A DNA stretch of 64,000 nucleotides from an uncultured Planctomycetaceae bacterium (GCA_963813715.1 CAWFAK010000009.1:224001-288000); one strand, 5' to 3'; shown: positions 14,038 through 27,020, counted from the stretch's first letter. Made by a program: numbers and translations. Notes: generated from the letters alone by a model not told the origin.

Positions 14038-14350
14038 AGTCGGGGCGACAGGATTCGAACCTGCGACATCCAGCTCCCAAAGCTGGCGCTCTAGCCAGGC
14101 TGAGCTACGCCCCGCGTCTGTTCTGTGCCGACACCCGGTCGAGGCGATGGGATCGCGCCGACCATTTTGTTGCGGCGTGATTGTACCGCGGCTCAAAGGG
14201 GCGTGCCACGGGCGTTAATTGGGTGGAACCGCTCCGGCATCGCGGTTTGGCGCCACCGGGGTCGCGATGAATTGGGAGTGCCGGCCGCCGGTTGCGACCT
14301 TCCGGCGGCCAGCGGTCCGGACGGGCGCGGGTCGACGCTTCGGTACGCGC
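14038..14350. repeat. ~310-bp direct repeat, left copy (tRNA-Pro plus upstream region)
   Basis: Aligns with 22007-22319; identical across the tRNA and increasingly diverged further upstream. Confidence 0.95.
14040..14114 (-). tRNA. tRNA-Pro (TGG), copy 1
   Basis: Reverse complement CGGGGCGTAGCTCAGCCTGGCTAGAGCGCCAGCTTTGGGAGCTGGATGTCGCAGGTTCGAATCCTGTCGCCCCGA; cloverleaf, TTC T-loop, CCA not encoded. Confidence 0.96.
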
Positions 14351-14400
14351 AAAAAGCATCGGCATCTTCTTCGCACTGCCAGATCTACTGAGCAGGCTCT

Positions 14401-16308
14401 TCATCGCTTAATGTACTCCCCGGGACTTTTGATTTTTTCAGGAGACTCTCGCGCGAGTTTCATAAATTCGTCGATGCAGGGAGGGCAGCAGAAACGGTAT
14501 GTCTTTCCGCCCACGATCCATGTGCATTGTGCATTGGCTTTGGTGAGCGTGATCGGACAAATCGGGTCTCCTGGCTTGGGCTTGAAGTCGTGGGCGGAAT
14601 GAAAGCCGCGGTATTTTTCGGCCGCCGTGGTCGAACCGTTGGCCGCGACGTCGGCCGCGGTGTAGAGGCCCTTGGGCGTCAGATATAAATCCCGCGCCGC
14701 ATCGGCTGTCACCGTTTGCGGCATCGGTGTGTTCTCCGCTTCGAACGCGAAACGAAAACGCTCCTTGGAACTGAAGCTCGCCCGCATCCGCCGCTCAGCA
14801 CGGCCGATTTCCGCGACCAAACCGTGAACTGCGTCCTTGTCATCGTTGGCCAACTCATGCTCCAGGAGTTCCAATTGGTCCTCGACGGCTTTTGCCGTCG
14901 ACCGCTGGTAATCGCTTAAGTGCCACGTCCGCAGATAGACTCCGACTTGCAGCTTGCGGACCCAGTCGGCGTAAATCGGGATCCAATGCTCGGCGTGCTT
15001 GCGGTCGCCCGAGAGCGCCGCCGCGAGCGTTTCGGTTTGTGCGTTCGAGATCTGCTCGAAGGCCTCGCTCGATTGAGGGTAGTAGGTGTAACAGCCGACG
15101 ACGCTAACGCCGATCAACACGAGCAGCGCCGCGATTCCGAGGGTCAACGCCGATAGCGATTTGTTGTACCAGGCCGGAGTTGCGGCGGCCGCAGGAAGTG
15201 GCCGCTCGAGCCAGTCCTCGATGCGAATGCGGCGATCGAGCAGGCGCAGGGCAACGCCGACGAGCAATGCCGCTCCGAGGAACAGGGCGCCGTAGAGCTC
15301 ATGCACCTGAGTGTCCTGGCGAAGCTTATTCCAAACGACTTGCCCGAGACCGGTCATGCCGAAGGGGAATGGCCGGCAGTAAATGTCGAATGCATGCGTG
15401 TGATCGGCGGGTTCGATTTCCGACGGATAAAGCGGTCTTTCGACGCCGTACGAAAGCAGGAGAACGATACTCAACAACAGGCCCAGCCAGGCGGCCGCCT
15501 TTTTCCATCCGTAGGTCCGTTGCATCCAGAGTACGAGACCCAGGTTCGTGCCCGCGCCTAGCGTCAGCAGGGTGAAGGCTGCGCCGACGGAGTTGCCGTG
15601 CTGAAACATGGACCCCAACTGCGACATGGCCATCATCGGAGTCGCGTAGGCGGGGACGGCGATCGCCGCCATTAGGAGCGGCGCCCAGGGATTTTGGTGG
15701 CTCATCGTGCTTTGCAGCGAATTGTGCGGCAGCACGCAGCTCAACGCGACAACTCCCATGACTCCGACAACAATGAACAACAGGCTGGGACCGGCAATTT
15801 CCCGGGTGCCGACGACGGCGACGGCCAGCATGCGGCGGAGGCCTCGCGGAACTGGTTGCGGCGGAGTTTCGGCCGTGCCGGAATCTGGAAAGAGTCGATC
15901 CCAAATCAGCCCGACAACCGTGACGACGAGCAGTGTGCATAGCCCAAACGCGAGAATTGTTATGGGTTCCGATAAAGTCAGCCCGTAGAGCAGCGACAAG
16001 GGGTTAAACAGCGGAGCCGCCAAGGCGAATGCCAGAATCGTTCCCCCGCTCAAGCCGGCGCGTCGCATCTCTCGAGCGACGGGAATCACGCCCAGCGAAC
16101 AGATTGGAAGCACCATTCCGATCGCCCACGCGCGAGGGATTGCGGCACGCGTCCCATGGCCGAATAGCGTGCGAATCGCATCGGGTCCGAGCAAACGCCG
16201 AAAGACGCCGGCAATCACCAGGCCGGTCAATATGAACGGCGAAGCTTGAAGCAGACACTGCGCTCCCCGCAGCATTCCGCCCCAAAAAAATGTGTCGAAA
16301 ATCGCCAT
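14401..16308 (-). CDS. Predicted permease (DUF318/ArsP-like) fused to a C-terminal Cys-rich YHS/TRASH-like domain
   Basis: GMVLPICSLGVIP and FALAAPLFNP motifs, many TM helices, DHTHAFD, C-terminal ICPIT...TYRFCCPPCIDEF. Confidence 0.8.
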   Translation of the reverse strand: MAIFDTFFWGGMLRGAQCLLQASPFILTGLVIAGVFRRLLGPDAIRTLFGHGTRAAIPRAWAIGMVLPICSLGVIPVAREMRRAGLSGGTILAFALAAPLFNPLSLLYGLTLSEPITILAFGLCTLLVVTVVGLIWDRLFPDSGTAETPPQPVPRGLRRMLAVAVVGTREIAGPSLLFIVVGVMGVVALSCVLPHNSLQSTMSHQNPWAPLLMAAIAVPAYATPMMAMSQLGSMFQHGNSVGAAFTLLTLGAGTNLGLVLWMQRTYGWKKAAAWLGLLLSIVLLLSYGVERPLYPSEIEPADHTHAFDIYCRPFPFGMTGLGQVVWNKLRQDTQVHELYGALFLGAALLVGVALRLLDRRIRIEDWLERPLPAAAATPAWYNKSLSALTLGIAALLVLIGVSVVGCYTYYPQSSEAFEQISNAQTETLAAALSGDRKHAEHWIPIYADWVRKLQVGVYLRTWHLSDYQRSTAKAVEDQLELLEHELANDDKDAVHGLVAEIGRAERRMRASFSSKERFRFAFEAENTPMPQTVTADAARDLYLTPKGLYTAADVAANGSTTAAEKYRGFHSAHDFKPKPGDPICPITLTKANAQCTWIVGGKTYRFCCPPCIDEFMKLARESPEKIKSPGEYIKR

Positions 16309-16324
16309 GTCAGCACCTTCAGAC

Positions 16325-17320
16325 TCAGCGTTTGGTCGGAGTGACGGGAACCGCAACGGCTGCAATGATTTCCGCGACGAATCGCTCGGCCGATTCAAAA
16401 TCGCCCACCAGGCGCACCGATAAAACGGGGACTGCAACGTCTTGGATGTCATCAGGTGTGACGAACTCGCGTCCTTGAAGCAGCGCGCGGGCTTGCGCCA
16501 CGCGCTGCCAGGTCAGGAGCCCGCGGGGACTCAGTCCCAATCGCACGGCTCGGTGTTCGCGAGTCGCCCGCCCCAGGTCGACCAGGTATTCGAGCAGGCT
16601 TTCGGTGACGGCAACGCGACTGACCTGGTCCTGAAGTTCAGCCAACGCCAACCGATCCACGGATTGGAGGTCGGCCGAGTGGGCATCCCGGCCGATCCTT
16701 GAAGCCAAGAGGCTCAACTCACTGGATCGGTCGGGATATCCGATCCGCACTTTCATTGCGAATCGATCGAGCTGAGCCTCGGGAAGCGGGTACGCCCCGT
16801 GACTCTCGACCGGGTTTTGCGTGGCAATGACGAAGAATGAGCCGGAAAGAGCTCGGCTGGCCCCGTCGATCGTCACCTGCCGCTCGGCCATCGCTTCAAA
16901 CAGGGCGCTTTGAGTTCGGGGTGTCGCGCGATTGATCTCGTCGGCCAAGAGCACGTCGGAAAACACCGGGCCTGGGAGAAACTCGAACTCGCGCGTCTTC
17001 TGATTGAAGATGTTGAAACCGGTAATGTCGCCCGGGAGGAGATCGGGTGTGCATTGCACGCGCGCGAATCGCCCGCCGACTGCGTGCGCCAGAGCCTTCG
17101 CCAGCGTGGTTTTCCCCAGTCCCGGCAGGTCGTCGAACAACAGATGGCCGCGCGCCAACAAACACGCGAGCACGAGCTCCGTGACTTCCTCTTTACCCAT
17201 AAGCGCGGAATTGAGTGCGCGGCGGAGTTCGCCAACGACGGGTCTACCCTCGCCGGGAGAATGCGCCGTCTGCGATTTGTGGCGGTGTCCGTCGTGCTTC
17301 GATTCCAAGCTTGTCGGCAT
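16325..17320 (-). CDS. MoxR-family AAA+ ATPase
   Basis: GHLLFDDLPGLGKT (Walker A), RVQCTPDLLPGD, LLADEINRA, ATQNP, LPEAQLDRF. Confidence 0.95.
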   Translation of the reverse strand: MPTSLESKHDGHRHKSQTAHSPGEGRPVVGELRRALNSALMGKEEVTELVLACLLARGHLLFDDLPGLGKTTLAKALAHAVGGRFARVQCTPDLLPGDITGFNIFNQKTREFEFLPGPVFSDVLLADEINRATPRTQSALFEAMAERQVTIDGASRALSGSFFVIATQNPVESHGAYPLPEAQLDRFAMKVRIGYPDRSSELSLLASRIGRDAHSADLQSVDRLALAELQDQVSRVAVTESLLEYLVDLGRATREHRAVRLGLSPRGLLTWQRVAQARALLQGREFVTPDDIQDVAVPVLSVRLVGDFESAERFVAEIIAAVAVPVTPTKR

Positions 17321-17342
17321 TCGAACCTCGTTTCTCTGTCAC

Positions 17343-19671
17343 TCAGAACACGCTTTGGCCCTGCATCGCAGCCAGCGAGGCCGCGCGGATTGCTTTGCGA
17401 CACACCTTGTGCACCTCAGTCTCTGGGACCGGGCATGCACTGACTTGCTGGGGGGCGTAAAGAACCCAGTCAAACAAATCGATCAGTCGTGAGTCGGACT
17501 CTGCACAGTTGGCGCTGAGAGCGCGAATCCGGGGACCGTGCCATTGGGCGAGTGTTCGATCGCGGGGCCGACCGAATCCGGCAAGGCGAGCACGCTGTTC
17601 CAATAGCCACATCGTCGCCAGCACTGCGTGACGGGGGCCGCCGAGCAATCGTCCGCGCCAAACCAGGCCGGCAACTTGATCGAGCAGGCGTCGTCGTCGC
17701 CAGGCTGCCGCAAACAACAAGGCCACGCCGAAGCCTGCGACCAGCCAATGCGCGCGAAGGGTTTTCTGCACGTGTGTGAGGAAGGCCGCAGGCCATCTCG
17801 CCATAAGTGCGGGCCATTCGTGGAGGTTCATAACCGGGTGTGGGTTCAATCGGATACCAGACTCCACTGGAGATCTCGACCTCCATCCAAAAGTGACCAT
17901 CCTCGCCCGAGACGGACGTCTGCCCCGCACGTCGGTCGTAACGCTTCGGGTCCGCGTAAAATCCGCTGACGGCGCGGGTCGGATAGCCGAGCGATCGAAG
18001 GATCAATCCAGCCGCGCTGACAAACAGGTAGTCGGGGCCTCGCCGCTCGCGAAAAAAGTGTCCGACGACGTCACGGCGATTGGGCGCCGCCAAAGCGTCA
18101 TCATCGAGAGTGAACTCATTTCGCAAGTGCTCAACCACCGCCTCGATCTGGGGCCAGCCGCGCGGCACGCCTTCGGTCCACTGAGTTCCCAGAGCCTTGG
18201 CTTCACTGACCGATGAGACATCGGGAAGCCGCGTCCAGAGAGCATTTTGGTCTCGAGGCAAATAGGGTGGGCGATGACGCACGGCGTCCGCGGCGATCAC
18301 GACGTTGACGAGGTCGATCGCCGTAAACTGGGGGATCCAGTCGCGGCCATGCATTTCCAGAACGCCGTCTGGTGTCCACTTGAAGAAACTGAGGCGATTG
18401 ACCCGATCGATGTGAAGGGAGCTCAAGAGCGGCGGCGAGGGAAATCGCGGCGATTTAAGGTTAATGATCTTGACGGAGTGGCGTTCCGCATCGACGACCC
18501 AGTTCTTGGGCACGGCGGTGAATTCAAGCCAGGGATTATCATCCGCCTCGTCCAGGGAGAGCGATGGCAGTGATTTGACTTCGGCTTCCTGGAACCAGGT
18601 GGCTCCGTCGAAGGCGTCATATCTTTCCATCGCCAAGTGCAGCGGCACCGGGCCTTTCAGGTAGAACAAGGCGTCGGACTCGGTGCCGTGAGGGCGGCTT
18701 TTCGCCTGAGCCGTGCGGCGGCGCACTGTCGAAAACTCACGGCCGGATCGCTTCGAATCGCTCGCTTTTTGATTCGGATCAGAGCTGACTTTGCCGCTTA
18801 ACGCGACCGCCCGCCCGACGCGCTGGGCCTTGGTAAGCGGCTCGCCATAACGGTCGTCGAGCATGTCGTAAAGGCTGGGCATCTGCGACTCGAGAAACGT
18901 CCCCGACTCGACCGGGCCGAACGACATCGGGTTTTGCTTTGCGGCGACCAGCATGTCGCCGTCGCCAACCCCCTGTCGCGCGTACGGGTCGGATTGGTGC
19001 TGCCCGCCCGAAGTCGGCATAAACCCGGGCATGGCCACCAACTCGCTGCGCACACCAGCAACGAGAGCGGCGGAGAGAATCATCAACACGCAAACGCCAA
19101 CCAACACTCCAGCGCGAACCGGCGTGTGGCGATGACATTCGACAGCGACGTGTCCTTGCAGTCGTTCCCAGTACGCGGCCATCAAGACCCAAAGGCCGAC
19201 GACCGCATAGATCGACGCGGGCACGAAGGCCGCGAGATGGTCTTCAATCGCGATGCAAAACAGCGTGAGAAAGCCGCTGAAGAGATACGAGGCGTGCCCA
19301 AAACCCCGCCGGCGGGAAAATACGGCCGTTCCGAGGGCCGCATTGCGCATGACCGCTAGCAGCACCAGCTCGAATGCCTCGCCGTCGCCGGTCAAGGTTC
19401 GCAGCGCTGTTTCGATCACTGGCGGCAGTGTCAGAAAGGCCGCTAATGCGATCGCTAGCGTGGCCCGAGGGCGCGGCCGGTCGAGACCGTCGCGCCGGCA
19501 CTCCCAGTAGAGACCTGCAAAAGCGATCGCGGTCGCGCTTAACTCAATCGCGACGTTCCACCATCGTTCACGTGAAGCACGGCGCACGACCTGAAAGGTC
19601 CCGGCGGCAAGTGCCGCCAGGATCAAACACGATGCACGCCGATCCGGCTTAGTTGTGCGACCAACCGTCAT
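17343..19671 (-). CDS. Membrane-anchored transglutaminase-like (TgpA-type) protein (frameshift near 17780)
   Basis: N-terminal TM helices; RRGPDYLFVSAAGLILRSLGYPTRAVSGFY...HFWMEV...EPTPGY core; C-terminal TM in ORF 17343..17930. Confidence 0.8.
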
Positions 19672-20936
19672 GACAAAGTTGCTCCCACCGCCGCGTCAGG
19701 CTCATCAGTGGATCTTCCCGCCCGTCGATGACCAGGCACGCTCTCCGAAGCGACGAGCAATCGTCCGGCTGCTGCCTCGCGACCGCTGCCTTAGGTCCCT
19801 CTCCGTACGCGTCGAGGACGACAAATTGCGTGTCGCGATCGCGTTGGAACTTGCACCTCCATTCGGCAACCCTTGCCGGAGTGGTCACGACGAAGGCGAG
19901 CGCGCGATCAGCACCGTCGTGCCGGCAGGTTTCGCACTCACATTTGCCATCCGGCGACCAGACCGCCAAAGCATCCATCATCCGCTTCAGTCCCCGTTCT
20001 CCCGGGTTCGCGAGAACAAAGCGGTCGCCAAGGCAAAGTTGCGTATCGGCATGATGCGAGTGGAATTGCCGGCCGATCGAGGCGACGACGCGAATCAGAT
20101 TCTCGCAAGCTTCGCTTGACCTGCCCTGTTGACGCTCGGCGCCGGTATCGAAGATCAACTGGACACGTCGCCTCGCGCTGGCTTGCCGCTCGCAGACCAC
20201 GAGGCGATCATGCCGGGCCGTCTGGGACCAGTGCACGTGTCGTAGGGAATCGCCGTGCCGAAACGGGCGCAGGCCGGTTACATCGCCCTCGTCTCCGACG
20301 TGCCGGCTGTGTGCCGCGGCAATCGACAGCGACTCGCCGAGAATCGGAGGAATCGACTGCAGGCATGCCGTACGGGGCCACACCAGCAGTTCGTCTTCGA
20401 CGTCGATTTCGGCCTGAGCCTGCCACAGACCGAATGGGAATCCCGTTGCCAGCCGCGGTGTCTCGAGCGGATAACGTCCGCGCCGCGGAGGACAAAACTC
20501 CCACTCAAAGACGGTCCGTGACCAACCCGCGACCCGCGCCAAGCTAGCGGCGGGCTTCGAGTCCTCGCCATCCGCCGGCAAAAAGAAGCCGCGCTCGACC
20601 ATGAGGCCCCAAAGAGGCCACGGGCCAGCGATTGGAGACCGCAATCCGCACACGGACGACCGAGCCCTCGGTCGCCCGTGGCCGATCGAACGACAGTGAG
20701 CACGAGACTGCTCGCATCGCGATCCGCGGCCAGGCGATTCCAATCAGCGCCACTGCAATCAATGCGGCGCAAACGATCAGGGCTTGAGGCGCCACGCTGA
20801 TGCCAATCACCAGAGCTGCCGCGGCTCCCAGCGCAAACCAACCAACCGGCTGCTTGAGCCAGTAGACATAGCGGTTGGCCCACGGACAGAAATCGTGATT
20901 CAAGAAGCTGGCTAAGCGCTCGACGCAATGGACCAT
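19649..20936 (-). CDS. DUF58 domain protein (frameshift near 20620)
   Basis: RRGRYPL..TGFPFGL, LLVWP, GLRPFRHGDSLRHVHWSQTAR; GGAGAGG SD before the ATG at 20936. Confidence 0.85.
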
Positions 20937-21221
20937 GACCTCTCCCTGCACGGATTCGACCGCTGGGGACATGCCGCGCAGCCGCGTTGCGATGAACGCA
21001 GGCGCCGCAACGCACGATGCGGAACAAGTCCACGATCCTGGACTAGGTGCTGCAGTTTTTCGCGCCCAGTGCCTGAAGCGAAACCAGCCGTCAGCCAGTG
21101 CCCGTGGTGTGAGTCGAGGTCCAAGACCGATTCGAGAAACGGATCGACGACCGTTCGAACACCACGGCCAAGGCGCAGACCGATGACGCTACGTCGCGCG
21201 AAATTGAGGGACCTCGATCAG

Positions 21222-21629
21222 CTAAGCGGGAGGTCCGCGAGAGAGGGGCAGAGAGGGCCGCGGCGGCGCGCAAAAAGCGGGCACTCGCCGCTCGATGAGG
21301 TAGACCACACCGACGTTTTCAACGACCGTGAAGGTCGCCGGAGCGACGCCTTTAACCGCCAACAGGCGACAGGCAAAGCACGAGTCCTCGCACCGCGTTG
21401 GGCCGTGCGGACGGTGATGTGAATCTCCGTCTTCCCCGGCATGACCGCCTTCCGCGCAGCAGTCATTGCAATCCGCATTGGCCGCTACATCGCGAGCTTC
21501 GCGGGTGCATCCCGAACAATGATGCGCAGAATGGTCGTGCAGAGCCTGGACACCCACCGTCGCCAGCAGGTAGCCGACAAGCGAAAGGACAACCTTTACC
21601 CGCTTGGAGCGCATCATGACACGAGCCAT
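21222..21629 (-). CDS. Small His/Cys-rich protein with signal/TM segment, CxxC and C-terminal RGPP (DUF2946/CruR/CutF-like leader)
   Basis: Hydrophobic N-terminus, HDHSAHHCSGC, CNDCC, CFAC, ends ...PLSRGPPA*. Confidence 0.75.
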   Translation of the reverse strand: MARVMMRSKRVKVVLSLVGYLLATVGVQALHDHSAHHCSGCTREARDVAANADCNDCCAEGGHAGEDGDSHHRPHGPTRCEDSCFACRLLAVKGVAPATFTVVENVGVVYLIERRVPAFCAPPRPSLPLSRGPPA

Positions 21630-21673
21630 TGGCTCCCATTAGATCGCCGACCACAACGAAAGTGAAGTGCAAG

Positions 21674-21688
21674 TGCAACTGAGTTGCA
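21674..21688. promoter_or_regulatory. Perfect 7-1-7 palindrome, Fur/Zur-family-like operator
   Basis: TGCAACT-G-AGTTGCA in an AT-rich stretch about 45 bp upstream of the cassette's first gene. Confidence 0.65.
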
Positions 21689-22006
21689 TTATTTAGCTCA
21701 AAAAGAATTCCTCAGTTTCGAGCCCCGGACGGGAGCAACAGACAACACTCGTCATTAAGTCAATGGAGACGGCACTCGAATCCGAGCCCGAGTAGGGAGC
21801 CGTTTGGGTGTGTGGGGGCATTTCGCAAGTACGTGTTGCGCGATGCCGAAAGCCAGCGACAAGTCGCGCTGGACGCGGGCGAGGTGCTCGAGCGTTTCCA
21901 GGCGTACCGCGCGAGCCATCAGCCCACAGGGCCGGATGAGCATCGTTTGCTCAACCAATCGGATCGAGAAGAATCCGGATCGGAGGGCACGTCGTTAAGA
22001 AATGTA

Positions 22007-22319
22007 AGTCGGGGCGACAGGATTCGAACCTGCGACATCCAGCTCCCAAAGCTGGCGCTCTAGCCAGGCTGAGCTACGCCCCGCGTCTGTTTCTGTGCCG
22101 ACACCCGGTCGAGGCGATGGGATCGCGCCGACCATTTTGTCGCGGCGTGATTGTACCGCGGCTCAAACGCGCCTGCCACGGGGGTTATTCCGGTGGGGCC
22201 ACTCCGGCACCGCGGTTTGGCGCCACCGAGATGCGATGAATTGGGAGTGTCAGCTGCGGGTTGCGACCTTCCGGCGGCCAGCGGACCGGAGTGGCGGGGG
22301 GCGACGCTTCGGTACGCGC
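22007..22319. repeat. ~310-bp direct repeat, right copy
   Basis: Aligns with 14038-14350. Confidence 0.95.
22009..22083 (-). tRNA. tRNA-Pro (TGG), copy 2
   Basis: Identical to copy 1. Confidence 0.96.
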
Positions 22320-26204: not shown

Positions 26205-26907
26205 TTGACCGCTAACGATTCTAAGGCCGTGATTTTTGATATGGATGGCGTGCTCATCGACTCGTATCGGGCACACTTCGAGAGTTGGCAGGCGGTGGCG
26301 GCCGAGCACGAGCGCGTCTATACCGAAGAGCAGTTCGCCGCGGGGTTTGGCCGGACGAGCCGCGAAGTCATCGCTGAGCAGTGGCAGGGCGAGCCCCTCT
26401 CGGACGAGCGGATCGCGGAGATCGACCGTCGCAAGGAATGGCTCTTTCGCGAAATCATCAGTGCTGACTTCCCCGCGATGGCGGGAGCGGTCGAGTTGAT
26501 CGCAATCGCTGGTGAGCGCCGGATTTCGAGTGGCCGTCGGCTCGTCCGGGCCCGCGGAGAACGTACAGCTAGCGATCGAGCGGCTCGGGGTCGGCCGGCT
26601 GCTTTCGGCCACGGTCACCGGCAACGATGTGAAACGCGGCAAGCCCGACCCGCAGGTGTTTCTAACCGCAGCCGCCCGCATGCAGGTGCCACCCGCGCGC
26701 TGCGTCGTCGTGGAGGATGCGCCGGTCGGGGTGGAGGCCGCCCATCGCGGCGGCATGCGCGCTGTCGCGCTTGCCAGCACCGGGCGCACGGTCGAACAAC
26801 TGCGCGCGGCCGAGCTGGTGGTGAAGTCGCTGTGCGAACTGTCGCCGCAGCGATTCGAAGAACTGCTGCGGGGAAGCGTCGGAGAATCCAGCGTTCTGAC
26901 GAAGTGA
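26205..26907 (+). CDS. HAD family phosphatase (beta-PGM-like), frameshift near 26510
   Basis: [28 protein letters not shown]. Confidence 0.9.
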
Positions 26908-26924
26908 ACCGAAGCGGAAGAGAA

Positions 26925-26955
26925 AGAACCGGCGGCCTGACACCCGCCGCTCGCC
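26925..26955 (+). repeat. 31-bp REP element, single copy
   Basis: AGAACCGGCGGCCTGACACCCGCCGCTCGCC. Confidence 0.85.
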
Positions 26956-27020
26956 TTTCGGCTGGCAAACTGCACGCGTTGAACCGATGATGTGAGCCAA
27001 CATCTTCAGGGAGACCGACC

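Follow-up and report, generated by a model that had tools for sequence, protein, structure and literature searches.

Locus layout

We analyzed a 64,000-nucleotide (nt) stretch of DNA from an uncultured Planctomycetaceae bacterium (GCA_963813715.1 CAWFAK010000009.1:224001-288000; hereafter the window) and a cassette of genes on its minus strand that combines a candidate metal-regulated leader, a MoxR-type chaperone trio and a permease. As the initial annotation had described, five co-oriented genes lie behind a perfect palindrome, and all features named there are present on that strand: the palindrome, the leader, a DUF58 gene, a gene with a transglutaminase fold, a MoxR gene, and a gene for an ArsP_1 permease whose tail weakly resembles YHS. 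The features of the locus, in positions of the window, are the following:

22007-22319, minus strand: tRNA-Pro(TGG) gene (22008-22083) and its upstream region, right copy of a direct repeat
21674-21688, no strand assigned: predicted Fur-family (Zur_D-type) operator TGCAAC-N3-GTTGCA, from its matrix rank and its match at 16/17 bases to a predicted Desulfovibrio desulfuricans Zur site
21638-21666, minus strand: candidate promoter with a -35-like TTCACT (21666-21661), a 17-nt spacer and a -10-like TCTAAT (21643-21638), inferred from offsets conserved in same-genus loci
21222-21629, minus strand: CruR-like leader of 135 amino acids (aa), with CxxC at residues 84-87, then 43 residues, then RGPP
19649-20936, minus strand: DUF58 gene, about 428 aa, start at 20936 or 20972, from a profile match; extra base at 20622
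17343-19671, minus strand: TgpA/YebA-type membrane protein with a transglutaminase fold, about 775 aa, from profile and fold; extra base at 17789
16325-17320, minus strand: MoxR AAA+ ATPase of a cassette-specific branch, with Walker A, Walker B and arginine-finger motifs
14764-16308, minus strand: ArsP_1/UPF0718 permease, residues 1-515, with a C-terminal four-helix bundle, from profile and model
14401-14763, minus strand: fused YHS/TRASH-like Cys-rich tail (CCPPC), from a sub-cut-off YHS match
14038-14350, minus strand: second tRNA-Pro(TGG) gene (14039-14114) and its upstream region, left copy of the direct repeat

The family assignments made earlier held for four of the profiles, DUF58 (PF01882, 33.9 bits), Transglut_core (49.8 bits), AAA_3 (200 bits), and ArsP_1 (PF03773, 89.3 vs 32.3 bits), all of which passed their cut-offs. 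DUF2946 (PF11162) gave no match at E ≤ 0.1 in the leader, and YHS (PF04945) matched below its cut-off (19.7 vs 30.3 bits, E 9e-4). The start of the permease, previously placed at 16452, is most likely 16308, which gives a protein of 635 aa.

In the assembly, one surplus base each splits the DUF58 gene and the transglutaminase gene. Short-read contigs from public soil and rhizosphere runs are without the surplus base at 20622 in four of four runs and without that at 17789 in three of the three runs covering it, and we therefore consider the two frameshifts to be assembly errors and the genes to be intact in nature. With relatives also carrying intact genes, a pseudogene reading of the two was ruled out. 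Elsewhere in the window, a gene that we take to encode a HAD-like phosphatase (26205-26990 / 26512-26907) is apparently split by a frameshift too, which fits indel errors of the assembly.

Conservation of the gene set

The co-conservation proposed for the gene set is borne out by the relatives. The order DUF58-transglutaminase-MoxR-permease is kept in 21 of the 28 related permease loci (two others are partial, and five have the permease without the other three genes) and in 10 of the 11 held-out loci, the remaining one being rearranged; 10 of 22 genome-contig loci were left out of the locus set as short or as repeating DNA already included. Across a phylum sample of 301 genomes, the transglutaminase subfamily was found in 14 and the permease in 15, all 14 having both, and every match of either was confined to one planctomycete class. 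The permease is kept beside the transglutaminase nearly always, also after rearrangement (L090, L240). The AAA+ module may serve the permease, as suggested earlier, but five loci have a permease and no trio, even though every genome of the phylum sample with the pseudo-transglutaminase also has the permease. Homologues are recorded under species of Gimesia, Thalassoglobus, and Lignipirellula, so named strains exist in which the cassette can be tested.

Thirteen of the 21 ordered loci carry an extra lipoprotein gene between MoxR and the permease, whose product begins with a His-rich stretch and contains a WLPELAA motif. It matched no named family by profile, its high-scoring atlas matches were to unnamed planctomycete clusters only, and the gene was not found in the window's genome. 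In L055, L056, and L058, a divergent permease subtype is followed downstream by two Band 7/SPFH genes.

A transglutaminase subfamily without the catalytic cysteine

The transglutaminase-fold protein belongs to a subfamily of 66 proteins recovered at E < 1e-74, the next match being at 1e-10. None of the 66 has Cys at the catalytic-Cys position, which is occupied by Asp in 58; the His position is His in 63, and the Asp position is Glu in 62. From these residues, we class the cassette protein, which has Asp/His/Glu at the triad positions in place of Cys-His-Asp, as a pseudo-enzyme, in agreement with its earlier naming as a pseudo-transglutaminase. As the catalytic Cys is absent throughout the subfamily, thiol-type degradation by the transglutaminase domain is unlikely.

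With its transglutaminase fold on a multi-pass membrane anchor and its MoxR and DUF58 neighbors, the protein is of the TgpA/YebA type, and TgpA is its best structural match (6g4h/6g49, E 7e-13 and 2.5e-12). TgpA is reported to need Cys-His-Asp, to be active and essential, and to be co-transcribed with PA2875 and PA2874 (PMC3507681). The Pseudomonas aeruginosa PA2875-PA2873 genes (MoxR-DUF58/vWA-YebA/TgpA) thus represent the same three families as the cassette trio, but as they are described in PMC3507681 and PMC3495828, the cassette differs in the Cys-to-Asp and Asp-to-Glu changes, an additional conserved segment (about residues 213-275), its gene order (DUF58-transglutaminase-MoxR), and the coupling to a permease, a lipoprotein, and metal regulation. 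The MoxR protein has the AAA_3 domain plus lid, and in a quick tree, all 46 cassette-locus MoxR rows fell on one side of a branch separating them from 10 own-genome paralogues (Shimodaira-Hasegawa-like approximate likelihood ratio test, 99).

Trios of MoxR, DUF58, and transglutaminase genes are common and their function is unexplained, the standing proposal for MoxR-vWA-YebA being a membrane-protein degradation system (PMC3495828). A whole subfamily that has lost the catalytic cysteine while keeping the other two positions, and that is linked with both a permease and metal regulation, supplies a condition for experiments, zinc limitation, and a phenotype to look for.

The predicted operator and its putative Fur-family regulator

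The palindrome TGCAACT-N-AGTTGCA means little by its perfection alone, because the window holds 14 perfect 7-1-7 palindromes. As TGCAA-N5-TTGCA, it occurs once in the 7.49-Mb genome, and in a matrix built from 16 related sites, it has the top score of the genome (29.8 bits, the next being 19.3). The permease/YHS loci (568 kb) contain 13 exact TGCAA-N5-TTGCA sites, 11 of them in upstream zones, compared with the single one in the whole genome. In the held-out loci (219 kb), 20 positions scored at least 17 bits vs none in 206 kb of znuA-like and feoA loci, and the box was within 1 kb of DUF58 in 6 of 11 held-out cassettes. A chance origin of the palindrome was rejected on this recurrence at the cassette. 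The bare pattern was only modestly enriched over its reversed control in five genomes (7/3, 5/6, 2/0, 6/1, and 10/3).

The site is identical at 16 of 17 bases to a predicted D. desulfuricans Zur site (PMC545781). With the Desulfovibrio Zur_D regulon, for which the box ATGCAACnnnGTTGCAT was predicted (PMC545781), it shares these bases and a Fur-family regulator; there the box precedes znuABC-zur, whereas here it stands before the cassette and the genes for the regulator, ZigA, and prepilins, but before none of the znuA-like genes examined. The genome's sole Fur gene over the cut-off, at C7:366.6 kb, has CGCAAC-N3-GTTGCG upstream, a site of matrix rank 5 in the genome that lies between the Fur gene and a divergent second leader heading a Flp/Tad operon. 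Among the loci of Fur orthologues, 9 of 27 score at least 17 upstream. Of the genomes that have the orthologue, 8 of 10 carry the box, compared with 1 of 9 of those lacking it, related genomes not being independent; this table is without L035, L038, L039, L045, and L060, which have incomplete cassettes or less than 1.2 kb upstream, and without permease-only loci. In G003, which has the closest cassette, there is no Fur orthologue and the box has decayed.

All 25 aligned Fur orthologues have a Cys after the first CxxC, where two paralogues have Asp or Glu, and this invariant Cys may form a soft-metal site. The box ends 7 nt upstream of the -35-like hexamer, with the same offsets in five same-genus loci (the window and four others). 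We offer the motif as a candidate operator for a planctomycete Fur-family regulon. As for the palindrome's co-conservation with the genes, relatives again have the box upstream, and it is associated with a Fur-family protein; it accompanies 8 of the 18 first-set cassettes with 1.2 kb upstream.

Leader peptide and related leaders

The first gene of the operon (21629-21222) encodes the His/Cys-rich RGPP leader that had been annotated, with 8 His, 9 Cys, and RGPP at residues 131-134, ending RGPPA. A basic start is followed by a hydrophobic stretch (hydropathy 2.04 across residues 11-27) and a His/Cys-rich middle. The spacing from CxxC to RGPP is 43 residues here and 43-46 in related leaders, and no open reading frame (ORF) of this type was found in control loci (415 kb strand-bases). 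The gene lies 250-285 nt from DUF58, the corresponding distance being 92-622 nt in most relatives. The RNA structure of this spacer is unremarkable (z -0.74) and poorly conserved. The last 75 nt of the leader have a C-G difference of +16 (z 0.8 vs codon expectation), and Rho is present in the genome.

The leader matched no Pfam or NCBIfam profile; of five related cassette leaders compared with PF11162, one passes (27 > 23.7 bits), one is weak, and three give no match. Since it misses the DUF2946 profile, the window leader may at best work like the DUF2946 leader CruR, and we do not file it as a member of that family. DUF2946 leaders are described as having CxxC 45 ± 1-2 residues before a C-terminal R[AG]PP, the spacing in CruR being 45 (PMC9426467), and CutF as acting in the opposite sense to CruR (bioRxiv 2025.02.05.636593). 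With CruR of Bordetella pertussis and CutF of Rhodobacter capsulatus, as they are presented in these sources, the window leader shares the first place in an operon, a hydrophobic N-terminus, a CxxC-R[AG]PP spacing of about 43-45, and a long spacer; unlike them, it gives no DUF2946 match, is His-rich, stands behind a Fur-family box, and precedes DUF58, MoxR, and permease genes instead of copper genes. In Caulobacter crescentus, the genes CC2720-26, in which a DUF2946 gene heads czrCBA-zntA, similarly combine a Zur-type operator with a DUF2946-like first gene in a metal operon, but the Zur box and the cargo are other ones, and there Zur activates efflux (PMC4176598). The window leader is a candidate zinc-type leader of a kind so far tested only with copper.

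In the 18 first-set cassettes with 1.2 kb upstream, the box was present in 8 and the leader in 10, both in 5 and neither in 5; two of the last five sit downstream of a co-oriented COG0523 gene. The 10 ordered held-out cassettes had the leader in three, two of these also with the box. For the two-tier control suggested at the outset, transcriptional plus ribosome-stalling, the recurrence of the box and the leader's geometry, which is that of a metal-sensing arrest peptide, speak in favor, but the two tiers are no obligate pair.

Small proteins with RGPP/RAPP that precede metal genes have been catalogued as a class (PMC12992588). According to the same source, such arrest peptides precede many gene classes, sec genes included, and the leader could accordingly monitor secretion or membrane insertion in the manner of SecM or ApdP, with no role for metal and with the trio as ordinary membrane-protein quality control, as the degradation proposal for MoxR-vWA-YebA (PMC3495828) would also have it. 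The fixed spacing of CxxC and the His/Cys-rich middle argue against this, as does the absence of the catalytic Cys, and we consider such a role highly improbable.

Related leaders occur at other places. A paralogous leader with 44% identity and the pattern CxxC-43-RGPP precedes a prepilin-type gene at G000:C8 49576-49974, where there is no strong box. In L068 (13211-15016; G000:C7 about 365-367 kb), the Fur orthologue and the CxxC...RPPP leader of the Flp/Tad pilus operon are transcribed divergently, and L034, L058, and L104 likewise combine Flp with a leader. A metal-gated Tad pilus would merit a separate study.

In an alternative reading, the trio would act on surface structures that belong to the same regulon, such as Flp/Tad pili, DUF1559 prepilins, and PEP-CTERM proteins, with the permease as a co-regulated passenger. 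Another box site of the genome heads the second leader and its Flp/Tad operon, a third leader stands before a prepilin-type gene, boxes or leaders precede DUF1559 genes in L037, L048, L069, L076, L077, L237, L242, and L246, and some loci have the permease alone. MoxR and transglutaminase genes have also been linked to archaeal type IV pili (PMC4858521). This is countered by the presence of the permease in all 14 pseudo-transglutaminase genomes, nearly always adjacent and staying so in the rearranged loci. DUF1559 genes are very numerous in planctomycetes, which also counts against a surface role, and we regard this alternative as quite unlikely.

The metal signal

Of the metals that could act on the operon, iron was rejected. 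The box score before feoA reached 17 in none of 30 loci (best 14.4 and 14.3), and feoA has a different palindrome: a TGAGA-N5-TCTCA-type sequence lies about 60-580 nt upstream of it in about 20 of the 30 loci (L176-L205, e.g., L177, L181, and L204). We consider this palindrome a candidate planctomycete iron-regulator site, distinct from the cassette box.

COG0523 genes scored at least 14 upstream in 6 of 8 genomes with the Fur orthologue, four of these at least 20, and in 0 of 9 scored genomes lacking the orthologue, although two of the six sites were among the training sites of the matrix. One box-bearing COG0523 protein is ZigA by the NCBIfam cut-off (605 > 600). Another box neighbor is a choice-of-anchor M protein (NCBIfam), and related anchored-repeat genes are reported to be zinc-repressed in Corynebacterium diphtheriae (PMC6711530). 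COG0523 genes with CobW_C adjoin the cassette in L038, L044, L051, L055, and L058, a COG0523 match being found also in L090; in L044, L051, L055, and L058, the gene is upstream of and co-oriented with the cassette. The COG0523 gene CC0321 of Caulobacter is described as a zinc-starvation gene (PMC4176598). In G041 (L134/L055), there is no Fur orthologue, and another palindrome, GTAATAC...GTATTAC, precedes an operon that comprises COG0523 and flavoprotein genes, a FeoB-like gene, and the cassette. A paper on Staphylococcus aureus ZigA gave no passage on FeoB-like or oxidoreductase neighbors.

Since the box matches Zur_D, tracks the Fur orthologue, and precedes ZigA/COG0523 genes instead of feoA or znuA-like genes, zinc is the likeliest signal, and the metal control proposed without a named metal can be narrowed to it at that strength. 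The ZigA link favors a role in starvation.

Permease and YHS-like tail

The permease residues C70, H237, H303, H305, and D308 are kept in 90-94 of 95 rows, and the structure model is confident (predicted local distance difference test, pLDDT, 87). Foldseek gave no match to the fold at E ≤ 0.001; with VIA-align, the permease matched a generic four-helix bundle only (best Z 13.7), and no solved structure matched the membrane part. ArsP, SO_0444, and SaoE (ArsP_1/UPF0718) share with the cassette permease the PF03773 match above cut-off, whereas the cassette protein differs in its H-x-HAFD loop, its C-terminal four-helix bundle, and its lineage-specific YHS-like tail. The fusion to this tail, which carries the CCPPC motif, is limited to a lineage, with 9 of 120 listed homologues fused. 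Together with these, a 635-aa cluster of 22 members at 98% identity led us to reject the idea that the fusion is an artefact. An atlas search with the tail gave no usable match. In L062-L065, lipoproteins of about 300 aa with the same YHS-like tail precede CusB-like and resistance-nodulation-division (RND) efflux genes, and upstream in three of these loci there is a small ORF with a Cys-rich beginning or a site resembling the box.

Proposed mechanism and its alternatives

Our preferred reading, to which we give slightly less than an even chance, is that the cassette is a zinc-limitation envelope module under Zur_D-like repression and a metal-relieved arrest peptide, in which the permease is a conduit and the trio a machine for assembly or remodelling without proteolysis. 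Under sufficient zinc, the genome's sole Fur-family protein would bind TGCAAC-N3-GTTGCA beside the promoter and repress the operon. Once the operon is transcribed, the ribosome would stall at RGPP with CxxC at the tunnel exit; by analogy to CruR, metal on the nascent His/Cys region would relieve the stall and shut off the downstream genes. Under zinc limitation, the ArsP_1-family permease could then serve as a metal conduit (Cys70, His237, and His303-x-His305-x-x-Asp308), for which the His-rich lipoprotein may act as a metal collector in most relatives. The MoxR ATPase, DUF58, and the membrane pseudo-transglutaminase, which would bind rather than cleave, could form the machine that assembles or remodels the membrane unit. 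A predicted complex of permease residues 1-515 with pseudo-transglutaminase residues 205-622 scored 0.00, which speaks on neither side. In this scheme, the gene set and its co-conservation, the recurring box, the lost catalytic Cys, and the geometry of the leader are observed, whereas we infer the metal, the direction, the arrest, and every protein contact.

Contig cover in RNA run X8 is flat and carries no information on transcription. Several results weigh against the scheme, one group of them concerning direction. The permease families with names that come nearest, far under their cut-offs, are exporters (SO_0444, 71 vs 300 bits; SaoE, 75 vs 325 bits), and a DUF318-related Shewanella gene has been called a heavy-metal efflux gene (bioRxiv 072470). 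The YHS-like tail elsewhere ends a separate lipoprotein, which stands before RND efflux genes in four of six loci examined. The box is placed upstream of the candidate -35, as where Zur activates the Caulobacter CC2720 efflux operon (DUF2946-czrCBA-zntA). All of these would fit an operon that is activated by the metal-loaded regulator, with a CutF-like leader at which metal induces stalling and a permease exporting excess zinc or copper. The same box precedes ZigA/COG0523 starvation genes (PMC4176598 for CC0321), however, and COG0523 is co-oriented upstream of the cassette in the four loci noted above; we think that export is unlikely.

Further adverse points concern the metal and its regulator. 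Both experimentally tested DUF2946 leaders, CruR and CutF, sense copper as reported (PMC9426467; 10.1101/2025.02.05.636593). The Fur protein scores 17.5 bits against a cut-off of 167 on the Zur profile NF008646, higher on the Fur and PerR models than on Zur, and under every Fur-family equivalog cut-off. The Zur_D box is itself only a computational prediction, and in the held-out set, its link to the orthologue is weaker (box in 5 of 9 with the orthologue and 1 of 2 without). No box was found before znuA-like genes in the 30 best PF01297 loci, which may be manganese systems, and neither ZnuA (PF01297) nor CobW_C was found in the window's genus (0 of 11 genomes, 65-98% complete). ZnuA is present in 23 of 26 other genomes of the family, and the window's own genome has ZIP-family matches at two places. 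For the arrest, none of 26 leaders has an excess of C-rich Rho utilization (rut) sequence over codon expectation (z -1.0 to 1.7).

The copper leaders, the non-Zur profile scores, and the absence of the box before znuA-like genes would suit a regulator and leader responding to another thiophilic metal (copper, nickel, or cobalt), and the invariant Cys after the first CxxC would accommodate several soft metals. The box nevertheless matches a site predicted before znuABC-zur in Desulfovibrio, and its ZigA and choice-of-anchor M neighbors point to zinc, which makes another metal very unlikely in our view.

An extension of the zinc-limitation scheme, speculative and rather improbable, would make the cassette an ATP-driven metal-acquisition machine of a new build. 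The transglutaminase fold would offer an Asp-His-Glu metal or peptide site, and MoxR, via DUF58, would remodel it or the permease across the inner membrane and so load or release zinc for an ArsP-family channel, with the lipoprotein or the fused YHS-like tail collecting metal. Expression would be under the control of an arrest peptide that senses zinc and of a Zur_D-type repressor, and the machine might stand in for ZnuABC in a genus in which none was found. Under the preferred reading as well, the permease is a candidate importer within a family known from exporters.

Our literature search covered titles and abstract openings in a library that lacks most subscription papers, and within these limits found no paper describing the cassette; the supplements of PMC9426467 and PMC12992588 may list such leaders. 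The parts are each of a kind already described, and Caulobacter offers a precedent for a Zur site in front of a DUF2946 gene. This analysis adds the predicted operator and its regulator, the connection to zinc, the subfamily with the Cys-to-Asp change, and the island on which the cassette lies.

An island between tRNA-Pro genes

Two identical tRNA-Pro(TGG) genes, the genome's only two, flank the cassette at a distance of 7969 nt, and the approximately 230 nt upstream of each are 90-91% identical between the copies. In run X8, one contig passes directly from 14260 to 22261 without the cassette, although it may be a path through the repeat. In the sister genome G002 (87% complete), which has 91-92% DNA identity on both flanks, the site of the cassette holds one tRNA and an O-methyltransferase gene, and no permease match was found in that genome. 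In G003, the cassette is located beside a pilus operon instead. Because of the tRNA-Pro duplication, the empty-site forms, the other cargo in G002, and the other location in G003, we conclude that the cassette is accessory and has moved in the past.

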